DNA of 54,178 bases, the filler included, from Catajapyx aquilonaris (taxonomy: Eukaryota): assembly GCA_000934665.2 (NCBI GenBank). It is 2 parts of 2 records of this genome, joined end to end, with 100 filler letters (N's around TTAATTAATTAA, not from the genome) between each part and the next. Parts side by side here need not be neighbours in the genome. Positions count along the whole stretch, not along the records: positions 27,141 to 54,178 come from JYFJ02005124.1; 1 more part is not named here. The stretch is one strand, 5' to 3'. The position numbers were made by a program, and so were the translations under genes. Positions 27,141 through 32,329 of the stretch are shown in pieces. Below the pieces are notes generated by a model, which saw nothing but the letters and a program-made list of their open reading frames with translations, was not told where the DNA came from and made no database searches. Position 1 is the stretch's first letter. Every line of letters begins with the position of its first letter.

Positions 27141-27288
27141 AAATCGCCTATTGCGATCAAGTGAATAGCAATATGCTCAGAGCGATTTGAAAATAGCAGC
27201 TTTTTTAAACTGCTAAGCGATTTTTGTCCCATCCCTAGAAGAGAAGAGTTGCTGGGTGAGACAATCCACTGAATCCAGTGTGTCCTGA

Positions 27289-28614
27289 ATGATGGGGGCT
27301 TTAGGAGTGGTTGTCCGTCGGGCCATGTCGACGGCGGCTCCCAAGCGGTTCTTCAGACGCGTAGGGGTGGTGAGCAGCGGTGGTCCTCATCCGCCCAGCT
27401 ACGAGATCACCCTGGACCAGAAGAAGCTGAAGACACCGGGCGGGAAGGTGTTCAAGGTGCCCACGGAGGGACTGGCCCAGGCGGTGGCAGCAGAGTGGGA
27501 CATGCAGGAGGAGGTCATACACATGCCCTCCATGCACCTGGTACGGGGTCAAATCTGTGGATTGTTGCAGTATGAGTCCAACAATCAGCGGCCTTGTTGT
27601 TACATGCGGCTCATTCTGTGGACATGTGCCACAACGTGTTACTTTCACTAGTGACATGAACCACTTTGGCCTTCTAGGTCGCATTGTTGGAGGCGTACCG
27701 TACCATTTAACCTACTCGGTTGTCAATTTCAGACAGGTTTGTGCAACACCGCTATGGACAACTACAGAAGAAGGGAGGAGCTAATCAACCACCTCCTCGA
27801 GTACTTGCGGACCGATACACTCACCTGTAGGATGGAGGTAAAGTGCACGCTGCTTCAATGCTCATCTGTGCTGGGCTGAAATCGTCATGTATGGACATTT
27901 CCACGTGTAATACCCACTGTGATGTTGACTGGGTGCATCACCAAATATATGACGTACTTTAGCGTAGCATAGTAGCATCAGTGACTTGAGGATCAATGGG
28001 CTATTTCTGGAAGGAATTTGGTAGGATATATACCCTGCCAGCTATTACAGAAATGCAACTTCCCTTTAATGTTACAGGTTCAAAACCCCAAACATTTCAA
28101 TTAAGGCACATGCGTCATGCATGTTTAATAAGCAGCCATGGTAATCAGCAGTTCTAAGCCACAACATTTCTCCTAGGAGCCTCCTGAACTGGCAGAGTTC
28201 CAAGCCGAGCACTGGGATCCAGTCCTGTCCTGGTTCAATTCCACCTTCGATGCCACTTTAACTCCTTCAGTCGAGTTAGTGGGTCCTACTGTGTCCGAGT
28301 CAACTGTACGCTCCGTGCAACGCCACCTCACTTCCTATCCAACATGGTCTCTGCACGGCGTCAGCTATGGAGTGGAGAGCACAAAGTCTTTTGTCCTGGT
28401 TTTGGCAGCCCTTGAACGCCACCTGACTGTGGAAGAGGCAGTACGTTTGTGCCGCTTGGAGGTTGAGTTCCAGACCCGCCAGTGGGGATCTGTTCCTTGG
28501 GCTCACGATCTTGAAGAGCAGGACACGAGGGCCAGGCTCGCAGCCGCAGTCTTGTTTGTTCACTTCTCCAGCAATTTGGAGGCCGTCAGGGTAAAAAAGG
28601 TCCGTCCTCAGTGA
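27289..28614 (+). CDS. ATPAF2: Mitochondrial F1 ATP synthase assembly factor 2 (ATP12); exons 27289-27540, 27733-27837, 28177-28614
   Basis: PKRFFRRV, YEITLDQKKLKTP, LAQAVAAEWD, MHL|TGLCNTAMD, LEYLRTDT, WDPVLSWF, CRLEVEFQTRQWGSVPWAHD; GT-AG junctions in frame. Confidence 0.95.
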
Positions 28615-29158
28615 AGCTGGCAAGCACGAATCATCACAAGCTGCAGGAGGATGAACACAGGAGACATCACCTCCGAATACTCCAGGGTGCTCTGTCCACT
28701 CAGCTTGCAGCACAGGAGGAACTTGAACACAAACAAGACCACCAGCACTGCTGCACTCCAGGCTGCACGCAAGAGGGCGTTCTTGTATGTACCTGAGGAG
28801 TGAGTGTTTATTTATATGTAAATGATTGAAATTAATAATAAATAGGCTTTAGAATCTATTCTGTCTCATTGCTATAACTACTGCGACAAATTACTGAATT
28901 TATTCAACACACCAACGTAAGTAGCCTGCAGTACCCACCTTCTAAGTACGTTCGGATGAAGACAATGACACAGAAGTAGGCGTTGAGTGCATCACTGACA
29001 AACAGTGGGGTGAAAATGGCCCACCAGGAAGCAAGCAGTGTTCCCTGGCATTTGAGAGCCAGCAGCACGGAAAAGATGAACATGCACACCAGCAGGACCC
29101 ATATCTCGAAAAGGGTCAGTCCAAGCCAGCGCACCAGTTCCTTAAGTGTGAAAAACAT
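28608..29158 (-). CDS. TMEM203: Transmembrane protein 203 (134 aa); exons 29158-28939 and 28792-28608
   Basis: MFFTLKELVRWLGLTLFEIW...SWWAIFTPLFVSDALNAYF...FVFKFLLCCKL...SPVFILLQLVMIRACQLH* matches TMEM203 end to end. Confidence 0.93.
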
Positions 29159-29202
29159 GGCCTACCCTTACAACTACTAGTCTCTTTCTTACAGCTTGCG
29201 CA

Positions 29203-29834
29203 CTACCGCCTGGAACCTCCACCGGTTCCAATTCCAGGAGACACAAGTGCCACACGGTACACTTTAATGTGCACTGCTGAGTTATTCCGAATCTGCGTCT
29301 CTGCGTCCAGGGAGTCCTGTTGTGGCTCTAGGTCATCTAATTGGTGCAGAGTACTGTGTTAGTATTGCAAACATCGTGGCTCCTGTAGTATACTTACCAA
29401 CAATTTCAACAGTTGAGGTGTTGGTTGAAAGTTCTAATGTGCCTAAGTACTGCTTGTCCAGCTGAAGAGACAGGTTGATGGCACGAGCTACAGCAGCACC
29501 CAACCCATGTATGTACAGCTCTGTTTCACCTGAGTCTAGAAGTTTACGGCAACGTTCAAGTTGGGCCTAAAATAGTCCGAGGGAGACGATTACCGTACCT
29601 ATTAGTGCCATAAAAACGATTCAATTTGAAACCCTGGTATACCTTGAAGTTGGTCTTGTTGGTAACATAAATATCGTTGTGCCTCCTAGGTAGTCTGGGT
29701 GGAAGTCGCTTCCTGAGAACAAATTCCTCTGGGTCTAGCCTGATCCTCTCCCTCTTGGCAGGGGGCTCGCAGCTGTGGTCCGACTGGGAACCCACCCCTC
29801 CAGTCGCTCCCACCGCAGAAGCACCCTCCGCCAT
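29203..29834 (-). CDS. POP7: RNase P/MRP subunit Rpp20 (Alba fold); exons 29834-29643, 29566-29398, 29336-29203
   Basis: LRKRLPPRLPRRHNDIYVTNKTNFK|AQLERCRKLLD...IHGLGAAVARAINLSLQL...TSTVEIV|DDLEP...RNNSAVHIKVYR. Confidence 0.95.
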
Positions 29835-30417
29835 ACGCCTCCAACTAGCTGCCTCAACTCAACCCTGCAATAAGAAACATCTTATAAACATGGTGCTCGG
29901 TCGTCACACTTGGTGTTAAGTCGTCACACTTGGTGCAGTATAAAGCTGGAAAAAGATAATCACCCCCATATTTGATGACTTTGTGAACTTGGGAAATTTC
30001 CAAATTCATCATTTAACATCATTAGCAATCAACGAAGGTGACATTAGGTCAAGGCAAAATCCATCCACGAATTCCATTTTAATCTCATTAATTTGCTGCT
30101 TCTCCGCTACCATATGGACCACTAGCGAACCTTAATCAATGCAGTTTTTGCAGCCAAAATATGCCACATCTTCTGCCTCTCTCTACCAAAGCGAACTTTA
30201 ATAATCCGGCTGGTGTCGAGACGCACTCCGCCGCTACAAAGGCTGCTTGGTGCATTACTTCCTATGTATACTACCAAGCAGTACTAGTACCTTGCCAAAC
30301 AGTTTGCTAACCCAGCATGACCTTTTGACCTGCCCCTCACCTCTTTAGTGCACCACGCTTCACAACAACTGCTGCACATTTCACAAGGAAAAAAAATTGC
30401 GGATTATGACAGTCAGT

Positions 30418-30870
30418 CAGAGTTGCCAGATCGTGAGATCGAGTAAATGGTACCAACCCTCGAAATAAATGGTACTTTTCCGGAAAAGATGGTACATTTC
30501 AAAAATGGCGTAATTAATGTTAATTAAAGACAATTTAAATTTAAATAGCCGTAATTAAAAAGTTAACCATGATAAAGTAGTCGAAACCGGGGAAAGTAGT
30601 AAAGTACTGGCGGGGAGGGAAAAGCGCGCCGCAGGCGAAAATTTTCTTTTGGTTCAAGGTCACACAAGTTTTGGTGAATGTAACCTACTGGGAGATTTGA
30701 ATAGGTGTATATGTGGTTAAATTGGTATCACGCTTTTCATGGAAGTGGAATTGCAGAGTAACATTGGACTTGACAAAATAATGGTACTTTTTGCGTACCA
30801 TTATGGTACATGGTACGGAACCCGAAATTATGGTATGAATACCATAATTATGGTACATCTGGTAACACTG
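30418..30870. mobile_element. hAT-type MITE
   Basis: 8-bp TSD CAGTCAGT (30410-30417, 30871-30878); TIR CAGAGTTGCCAGAT / ATCTGGTAACACTG; repeated ATGGTAC subterminal motif. Confidence 0.9.
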
Positions 30871-30951
30871 CAGTCAGTTGTCAGTGAAGCGGCGTTGCCT
30901 GACAGCCTTCCTGCGTTGCCAGATGGGCGCGGACGAATCGATTTATGGCTC

Positions 30952-31392
30952 CTAATTCTGGTTCCCTCCCTGGCTCCTCTCCAGCATGAAGGCCTCGTGC
31001 TTCCCCTTCAGAAGGTCCAGAAGGATCCCCCTGAGGGAGGTCAACCCCTGTCGCACCTGGTCCTCCTGCCCCGACCGCAGCACCCTTCCCAACTCCCTGA
31101 TCTGCCCCTGGTCCAGGTTGATGACGTCCGCCCCCCTGATCCCTTCCCAGAGTTCCTTTCCTTTCCTGGCCACGTCCCCTGGCCTGTCCCTCAGGAGTCT
31201 GGAGCACTCCACCAGCGCCTTCAGAGTCTCCACGTCCTGGTCAGGCTCCAACTCCTGGTCCTGGTCCGGATCCACTTGGCGGTCCAGATACTGGCTAAAG
31301 TCCCTCAGGCCATCCGGATCGGACAGAAGGTCCGAGAGAGAGCAGGTCCATTGCCTGGAGGTGGAGGCAGGACCGCAGAGGGGGTCCAGCAT
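30952..31392 (-). CDS. 146-aa stand-alone RGS-domain-like protein, single coding exon
   Basis: WTCSLSDLLSDPDGLRDFSQYL...ETLKALVEC...KGKELW...VINLD...ILLDLLKGKHEAFM follows the RGS helix pattern; GC-rich, coding-like composition. Confidence 0.7.
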   Translation of the reverse strand: MLDPLCGPASTSRQWTCSLSDLLSDPDGLRDFSQYLDRQVDPDQDQELEPDQDVETLKALVECSRLLRDRPGDVARKGKELWEGIRGADVINLDQGQIRELGRVLRSGQEDQVRQGLTSLRGILLDLLKGKHEAFMLERSQGGNQN

Positions 31393-32329
31393 GGCGCATG
31401 GTGCCTACAGGGCGCCGCGTCGAAGACTGGCAGCAATGGCTGCGCAGGCGTGTGTTGCCCGATGCGCTCTGTTCGGTTGCCAAGACGAGTGAGGGCACAC
31501 ACCTGCAACCTTGGATCTGTTCCCAGCACCTGTCACAGTATTGTTCTGGTTCGGTGCCTCTCTATTCACACATCATGTACAGGGTGTGCTGTCAGCGGCT
31601 ATAGGGTGCGGCCCCCGTCAGGAGATAAAAAATGCAACGAAATTGACTGGCCAAGATATTGAACATCCACTTACCATGAATTGGCTTTGAAGAGTGGTCA
31701 AGATTGGGTCAAGAAGTACCCTGTATAAAACGGAGCGGAAATTATCAAAAGAGATAAGATCATGGCCCAGTATAAACAGCTGGCTTACTTTTTGGGTCAC
31801 AGCAAGTCAAGTGGCGGAGTGCTTGCAACAATGGCGTTCTCACGTCATTCCGGATTTGCGATGTGGCGTTAATTGCATTGTATGTAAATGGTGTATTTGT
31901 GGGAAAAACACCTTTCTCTACCAGTGCAGCTGAAAATGGTTCTACTCGAACTGTTCTGTCACACCCGGTCACACCCCTTCTTGAAGAGTTCAGTAGCCGG
32001 AACGAATTGTGATGCTACAGAGTCATATCCGGCAGCGAATATAGACGGTGTTGAGCAATTATCTGGAGAGGACCATGCAATATGGGGCAGATTGCACTGG
32101 AACTATTATTAGATATGCTTTCAGGCAGGGAGTAGTGTGTGTTGCGGTGTGTGCAGGATAACAGGGCGCCTCTTCTTTCATCCTTGAATATGAGGCATTT
32201 TACATGGTGCATTTATACGTGTTTTCTAGACCTTTTTGCTCTTGTTTAGTTATTTTAAACCCGCAAATGACCGGAGTCTCAATGTTTCAGCCTCATTGAG
32301 CAATACCATTGGGAGGGGAAAAATCGACA

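Follow-up and report, generated by a model that had tools for sequence, protein, structure and literature searches.

Rpp20 and TMEM203 as a probable dicistronic unit in Catajapyx aquilonaris, with a methionine-poor upstream protein suggestive of translation by scanning

The window analyzed here is a stretch of 54,178 nucleotides (filler included) from Catajapyx aquilonaris (GenBank assembly GCA_000934665.2), positions 27,141 to 54,178 of which come from JYFJ02005124.1. On its minus strand, the genes for Rpp20, a subunit of RNase P/MRP, and TMEM203, a membrane protein of the endoplasmic reticulum, follow each other as two independent, non-overlapping open reading frames (ORFs) with a short spacer in between, which is what FlyBase takes as dicistronic at the ORF level. 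We propose that the two are very probably carried on a single dicistronic mRNA molecule, from which TMEM203, as the second ORF, is predicted to be translated, and we lean towards a mode of translation in which ribosomal subunits reach it by scanning through Rpp20. The elements of the locus are as follows:

30291..30320 (minimum extent), minus strand: non-coding first exon, spliced to 29864 by a joint (29863/30290) that skips 426 nt and has 30 letters on its short side
30307..30318, minus strand: upstream ORF (uORF) of three codons with G at -3, which in the spliced RNA ends 46 nt ahead of the Rpp20 AUG
29643..29864, minus strand: exon 2, with 30 nt of leader and the start of the Rpp20 coding sequence (CDS; ATG at 29834, C at -3, G at +4)
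29398..29566, minus strand: Rpp20 coding exon (Pfam Rpp20, Alba)
29203..29336, minus strand: last coding part of Rpp20, ending in TAG; the exon runs on via the spacer into TMEM203
29159..29202, minus strand: intercistronic spacer of 44 nt, purine-rich, within the contig piece 28937-29336 described below
28939..29158, minus strand: TMEM203 coding exon 1 (ATG at 29158, G at -3)
28793..28938, minus strand: TMEM203 intron of 146 nt, with AATAAA at 28904 and 28812 (minus) and 28837 (plus)
28608..28792, minus strand: TMEM203 coding exon 2, with the stop TGA at 28610-28608

The Rpp20 CDS (29834-29643, 29566-29398 and 29336-29203) encodes 164 aa up to a TAG stop, this spliced ORF being 55-63% identical to named Rpp20s, and its exon 29566-29399 scores above the Pfam cut-off for Rpp20 (PF12328; 31.1 bits against a threshold of 24.6). 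The TMEM203 CDS (29158-28939 and 28792-28608) is intact and encodes a protein of 134 aa that is homologous over its full length to named TMEM203 proteins (PF10269; typical length about 134-137 aa), in keeping with an earlier note on this sequence, which had claimed a complete TMEM203 behind Rpp20. With its exon 1 as the query, all 76 candidates fell at E<=0.001, those named by NCBI being mostly transmembrane protein 203; PF10269 found no match with the window's TMEM203 exons alone, and does match a relative, P0001, that is 91% identical. Each gene has one locus in its own genome. Our models also agree with that note in placing the Rpp20 TAG at 29205-29203, a spacer of 44 nt (29202-29159) behind it, and then GCC and the TMEM203 ATG at 29158, as well as in finding no AATAAA in the spacer; ATTAAA and ATG are likewise lacking there, and a weak variant, AAGAAA, occurs at 29190.

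The region is covered by a single run of unrecorded kind, X1, the contig of which (1,736 nt) shows no mismatches to the window and has four introns removed on the minus strand and two on the plus strand; from the removal of these six introns, we infer that it derives from RNA. Its path leads from the first exon, which ends at 30291 and lies beyond the range 28608..29870 of the earlier note, into Rpp20, continues unbroken from 29336 to 28937 through the end of Rpp20, the spacer and TMEM203 exon 1, and is joined to TMEM203 exon 2. From there, it goes on to follow spliced antisense ATPAF2; because it joins this too, the continuity of what is a de Bruijn assembly path is no proof of one molecule. 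The spacer is present together with both its flanks in spliced RNA, and the assembly contains no joint leading into it. That cover is absent over the introns, and on the TMEM203 side past 28175, is not counted as evidence. The shared spliced transcript that had been proposed is thus supported by this contig, by intron-free contigs of other species that carry both the Rpp20 and the TMEM203 ORFs, and by the FlyBase annotation discussed below.

A survey of gene order and spacer length among homologues, which the earlier note had recommended, was made on at least 63 TMEM203 loci taken from metagenome contigs via a TMEM203 alignment, with Rpp20 then being searched for locally (a word-based search with Rpp20 exon 1 gave no matches, and a profile search was used instead). 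Among the matches listed, 30 of 63 loci have Rpp20 directly upstream of TMEM203 on the same strand; two of these, L003 and L042, are counted on a weakly scoring Rpp20 end alone. As both order and strand repeat in so many of the listed loci, the adjacency is not due to chance. The named anchors of the paired loci are termite, leafhopper, aphid, beetle-side and hymenopteran-side rows; for the remaining paired loci, 'crustacean-like' is our own assignment. The window falls with the paired rows in a 47-row TMEM203 clade (SH-aLRT, the Shimodaira-Hasegawa-like approximate likelihood ratio test, 95 in a quick tree), with no finer placement. The other 33 listed loci comprise 25 non-arthropod-like ones, one with only 33 nt upstream, and seven arthropod-side exceptions, namely four long-branch loci that we take to be mite-like, a spider contig, L023 and L047. 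None of the 25 listed non-arthropod-like loci, which mostly group with Capitella and gastropods and many of which are redundant, has Rpp20 ahead of TMEM203 within up to 5 kb upstream, where long introns could hide it. Hence, the earlier suggestion of an ancient arrangement stands for the insects and crustacean-like lineages and goes no deeper: because no mollusc/annelid-side locus is paired, and the spider and mite-like loci have other partners, 'ancient' can mean pancrustacean at most.

Junctions were modelled in the window and 17 other loci, the set on which the statistics given below also rest (L062 and L012 were not fully modelled; L024 and L025 were dropped as near-duplicates of L017; L003 and L041 are 5'-truncated). 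The spacers of these 18 junctions range from 1 to 220 nt, with a median of 25.5 and phases of 8/5/5; 16 of them are shorter than 50 nt, two consist of a single nucleotide, and lengths of 143 and 220 nt also occur. The order and the tight spacing persist even though the Rpp20s of insect and crustacean-like lineages are about 36% identical. As a side observation, spacer length is a multiple of three in 10 of 14 crustacean-like loci, which are related rows, two of them with a second in-frame stop.

Further loci place the pair in a context of trans-splicing. L004, L006, L007 and L023 begin with a common leader (about 31-33 nt, with AG at its end), which behaves as a spliced leader because an unrelated transcript, L065, is also headed by it; no match to its sequence was found in the literature searched. 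L065 comes from a viral collection and reads as a host chaperone transcript resembling the Hsp90 family. In L004, L006 and L007, the leader stands ahead of Rpp20 only, and is followed by Rpp20, 1-9 nt, TMEM203 and the 3' untranslated region (UTR), all in 1.08-1.12 kb. Rpp20 and TMEM203 stay together even where trans-splicing exists. L023 has the leader, TMEM203 and Mis12 with no Rpp20 in front, from which it appears that the pair has been resolved or lost in one lineage.

Turning to known systems, File S1 of PMC4528330 gives the FlyBase entry Rpp20/CG33932 as 'all di/polycistronic', unrelated, with 1 nt from stop to start, and with no reference or mechanism in that entry; this bears out the statement in the earlier note that Drosophila Rpp20 is annotated as dicistronic with a neighbor. 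The fly annotation as summarized there holds 159 dicistronic pairs, of which 45 are obligate (PMC4528330). As proposed for the window, the fly Rpp20 is listed as sharing all its transcripts with an unrelated small gene across a very short spacer; the two differ in the length of that spacer (1 nt in the fly, 44 nt in the window) and in that the fly genes are given as intron-free, whereas the window has two plus one coding introns and one in the 5' UTR. The JGI label 'RPP20' on seven TMEM203 proteins provides an indirect hint as to the identity of the pair. We take CG33932 to be the fly TMEM203, an assumption for which, as for the fly gene order, the literature search gave no confirmation. The window locus is probably orthologous to the annotated fly pair. 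Since dicistronic mRNAs are common in the fly annotation, and the pair itself seems to be listed there, the arrangement is not new in kind. A full-text literature search, covering few subscription journals, found no paper on the Rpp20-TMEM203 pair or its conservation; the deep conservation, the swapping of partners and the purge of methionine are the parts not found in print. A further parallel is the bicistronic human RPP14/HTD2 mRNA, for which the source describes the mechanism as uninvestigated and likely to be leaky scanning or reinitiation (PMC4705651): there too, an RNase P subunit is ORF1 and an unrelated protein ORF2, but the subunit, the partner and the lineage are different, and there is no homology.

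The translational part of our proposal draws on the composition of the upstream ORF. The window Rpp20 has no internal methionine in 164 aa, and over the whole proteins of the 17 loci and the window, internal methionines number 4 in 2,894 residues of Rpp20 as against 51 in 2,292 of TMEM203. In the Rpp20 core, the 18 paired proteins have 2 in 2,138 residues versus 22 in 1,072 for nine named non-arthropods, and 126 are found in about 9,660 residues of 83 non-arthropod-like proteins (grouped by tree, nine of them named). The methionine ratio in the paired core is 0.07, the next most depleted residue standing at 0.81; after thinning at 70% identity, the counts are 2/1,767 versus 103/7,859, spread over 52 columns. 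At the nucleotide level, with the expectation taken from each region's own base composition, observed/expected ATG is 76/145 = 0.52 in Rpp20 plus spacer versus 104/115 = 0.91 in TMEM203 (paired Wilcoxon P=1.4e-4). The out-of-frame ORFs in Rpp20 have a mean of 9.5 codons versus 16.6 after within-gene synonymous shuffling (P=0.0005; 0.006 in 15 thinned loci), and those of the TMEM203 control are not short by the same comparison. In the modelled mRNA of the window, there are six AUGs up to TMEM203: that of the uORF, the Rpp20 start, three out-of-frame ones and the TMEM203 start. The three between the starts, versus 8.6 AUGs expected ahead of ORF2, all have T at -3 and open ORFs of 18, 6 and 2 codons; the two starts themselves have C (Rpp20) and G (TMEM203) at that position.

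In a scanning model, an in-frame AUG captures the subunit into a long ORF and gives a truncated Rpp20, and short out-of-frame ORFs let scanning resume. Thus, the loss of methionine and the short out-of-frame ORFs favor scanning, because termination-reinitiation, internal entry and a second promoter predict neither; if the mRNA is dicistronic, we consider a scanning route likely. Briefly, one promoter upstream of 30320 would give rise to a capped, spliced mRNA of about 1.1-1.5 kb in which Rpp20 precedes TMEM203. Rpp20 would be translated by ordinary initiation at its sub-optimal AUG, which some small subunits might miss, either by leaky scanning or by resumed scanning after the tiny uORF. These would then cross the Rpp20 CDS, where the out-of-frame AUGs are few and weak and would be passed or briefly translated, and initiate at the AUG of TMEM203. 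Use of the uORF would depend on the start site, as the contig has just 2 nt ahead of it. Comparable routes are described elsewhere. In green-algal bicistronic mRNAs translated by leaky scanning, observed/expected ATG is about 0.43-0.49 ahead of ORF2 and about 1 in ORF2 (PMC11291117), compared with 0.52 and 0.91 in the pooled Rpp20 loci; an overall depletion of this type is seen in the window and the pooled loci and not in five insect loci, and the weak ORF1 start, reported there as a trend and tested in vivo, is found among the Rpp20 pairs only in the window and half of the loci. In ORF35-36 of Kaposi's sarcoma-associated herpesvirus, reinitiation driven by a short uORF allows ribosomes to skip ORF1 and begin at ORF2 (PMC3561293). 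Similarly, an out-of-frame uORF overlaps the Rpp20 AUG in 8 of 16 loci (L016 and L030, without a start, were left out of the start-context counts); that system is, however, viral, and the window uORF instead ends upstream of the Rpp20 AUG.

Several observations count against scanning as a complete account. Out-of-frame ATGs in Rpp20 are overall no fewer than in synonymous shuffles (67 versus 66.8), so that a general depletion of out-of-frame AUGs gains no support, and in five insects they exceed the shuffles (38 versus 31.9). These insects have 6-13 AUGs in Rpp20 plus spacer, with observed/expected values of 0.82-1.3 and no overall depletion; with that many AUGs to cross at a ratio near 1, plain leaky scanning is not the whole story in insects. 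A purine at -3 occurs in 8/16 Rpp20 and 11/18 TMEM203 starts, without a clear contrast, and a systematically weak Rpp20 start is accordingly unsupported. Upstream ATGs within 30 nt of the Rpp20 AUG (9/16 versus 6.2 expected) are not significantly enriched, and the absence of an out-of-frame ORF overlapping the TMEM203 AUG has P=0.2 after thinning. The rows behind all these statistics are phylogenetically related. Further, Rpp20s of cnidarian-like (0.48%) and unnamed insect-like (0.44%) origin are also poor in methionine, and TMEM203 keeps its methionines even where Mis12 follows.

Among the alternatives, the one that survives best keeps the dicistronic mRNA and has ribosomes either reinitiate at ORF2 once they have terminated on the full-length Rpp20 ORF or enter internally within the 3' part of Rpp20. 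The short spacers speak for it (two loci and the fly have just 1 nt), as do the 6-13 AUGs of the insects, the overlapping stop and start codons at both junctions of the mite-like L057, and a hairpin of -32.7 kcal/mol spanning the window Rpp20 stop (a single fold, with no shuffle control). However, neither version predicts that Rpp20 should lose methionine or have short out-of-frame ORFs along its length, some spacers reach 143 and 220 nt, and no spacer motif shared across loci is apparent by eye; we regard this alternative as unlikely.

Less probable still are two overlapping monocistronic RNAs, with a TMEM203 promoter inside Rpp20 and an Rpp20 mRNA that ends in the TMEM203 intron or beyond. 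The contig of X1, as an assembly path, cannot separate overlapping RNAs. The sense AATAAA at 28904 and 28812, versus about 0.19 expected per strand in the TMEM203 intron from composition, would allow Rpp20-only RNAs, and monocistronic isoforms are annotated at many fly dicistronic loci. Against this, the leader-capped contigs hold both ORFs, the FlyBase listing gives no monocistronic isoform for Rpp20/CG33932, and an internal promoter needs neither an AUG-poor Rpp20 nor a conserved spacing of 1-50 nt. A separate TMEM203 mRNA made by joining a shared first exon (in cis) or a spliced leader (in trans) to an acceptor in the spacer is more doubtful yet. An AG does sit 3 nt ahead of the TMEM203 ATG, and L023 has its leader directly on TMEM203; however, the nine AG sites of the window spacer are purine-rich, with 28-44% pyrimidines upstream versus 61-78% at the six real acceptors of the window, so that none is acceptor-like, and the X1 contig reads straight through with no such joint (rare forms would be dropped). 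The window spacer thus lacks the mark of a spliced-leader operon, and the earlier idea of a shared 5' exon with alternative splicing finds no support. Finally, stop-codon read-through into an Rpp20-TMEM203 fusion can virtually be dismissed: 8 of the 18 modelled spacers, all from crustacean-like loci, are in phase 0, but 10 are not, the spacers of L015 and L030 contain a further in-frame stop, and the exclusion of a simple fusion from the 44-nt phase, as argued earlier, holds for the window.

The downstream side of TMEM203 varies between loci. Mis12 lies behind it in nine loci (L005, L014, L030, L013, L002, L058, L060, L047 and L023); in four intron-free contigs it follows at 30-141 nt. The arrangement is a candidate Rpp20-TMEM203-Mis12 tricistron. 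Other followers are a further RNase P subunit, Rpp21/Rpr2, in one species (L041:913; 230 nt behind TMEM203), Alg14 (L003:771), the 213-nt spacer ahead of which includes a decayed Rpp20-like piece, and a PRELI gene at 65 nt in the spider (L043:639); neither Mis12, Alg14 nor Rpp21 occurs in the window. In the four mite-like loci (L061:80-1342, L057, L059 and L063), TMEM203 is instead preceded head to tail by LYR and an RF-1 protein (MTRFR-like), with abutting or overlapping stop and start codons, and the intron-free L061 and L059 are candidates for a tricistronic LYR-MTRFR-TMEM203 mRNA. Over the 855 nt from the first start of L061 to its TMEM203 start, the sole ATG is that of MTRFR. Internal methionine is absent from three of the four mite-like MTRFRs, a comparison made without an MTRFR control set; L063 goes the other way, having two internal methionines in its MTRFR as well as an AUG that overlaps the start of TMEM203. 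The fly genes for MTRFR and LYR are presumably CG30100 and CG42372. That pair, too, is listed as dicistronic in File S1 of PMC4528330. Two irregular starts were seen: TMEM203 of L059 has ATA near 662 where its relatives have ATG, and the Rpp20 frame of L030 (102-692) has no ATG start in its contig; a non-AUG start or an assembly artefact is possible in either case.

Taking these observations together, we tentatively entertain a broader scenario, in which the Rpp20 CDS may have served as a scanning track for TMEM203 since the insect-crustacean ancestor, with its methionines purged and its out-of-frame ORFs kept short by selection, and in which TMEM203 may be a promoter-poor polycistronic passenger with changing partners across arthropods. 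What is added to the known dicistronic annotation is the depth of conservation and a measurable methionine/AUG deficit in the upstream protein, which predicts scanning-based initiation; if true, methionine loss could serve as a protein-level marker for finding upstream cistrons. In practical terms, RNA interference or expression data for either gene would report on both, and annotation pipelines merge or mislabel the pair, as with the TMEM203 proteins named 'RPP20'.

Two features flank the pair:

27289-27540, 27733-27837 and 28177-28614, plus strand: convergent ATPAF2/ATP12 of 264 aa, supported by Pfam ATP12, the contig joints and the gene model
30418..30871, minus strand: young repeat of 454 nt with inverted ends, resembling a miniature inverted-repeat transposable element (MITE), about 100 nt ahead of the first exon as far as this is covered

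The coding ends of ATPAF2 and TMEM203 overlap by 7 nt (28608-28614), and for each gene the nearest canonical poly(A) signals sit in an intron of the other (plus-strand AATAAA at 28837; minus-strand ATTAAA at 28129 and 28070). Ahead of Rpp20, the region 30379-30291 holds a possible second donor (30340) as well as an ATG (30379); depending on the start site, the latter would open an ORF of 72 codons overlapping the Rpp20 start with the donor used, or of 16 codons with the other. On the same strand, an open frame of 150 codons (30952-31404), with no Pfam match and no cover in X1, ends roughly 630 nt before the first exon. The 454-nt repeat has at least 47 matches in its own genome, and among the matches listed 15 are near-full-length at 96-100%, itself included; with identical copies elsewhere in the genome, this MITE-like element is inserted at the presumed Rpp20-TMEM203 promoter.

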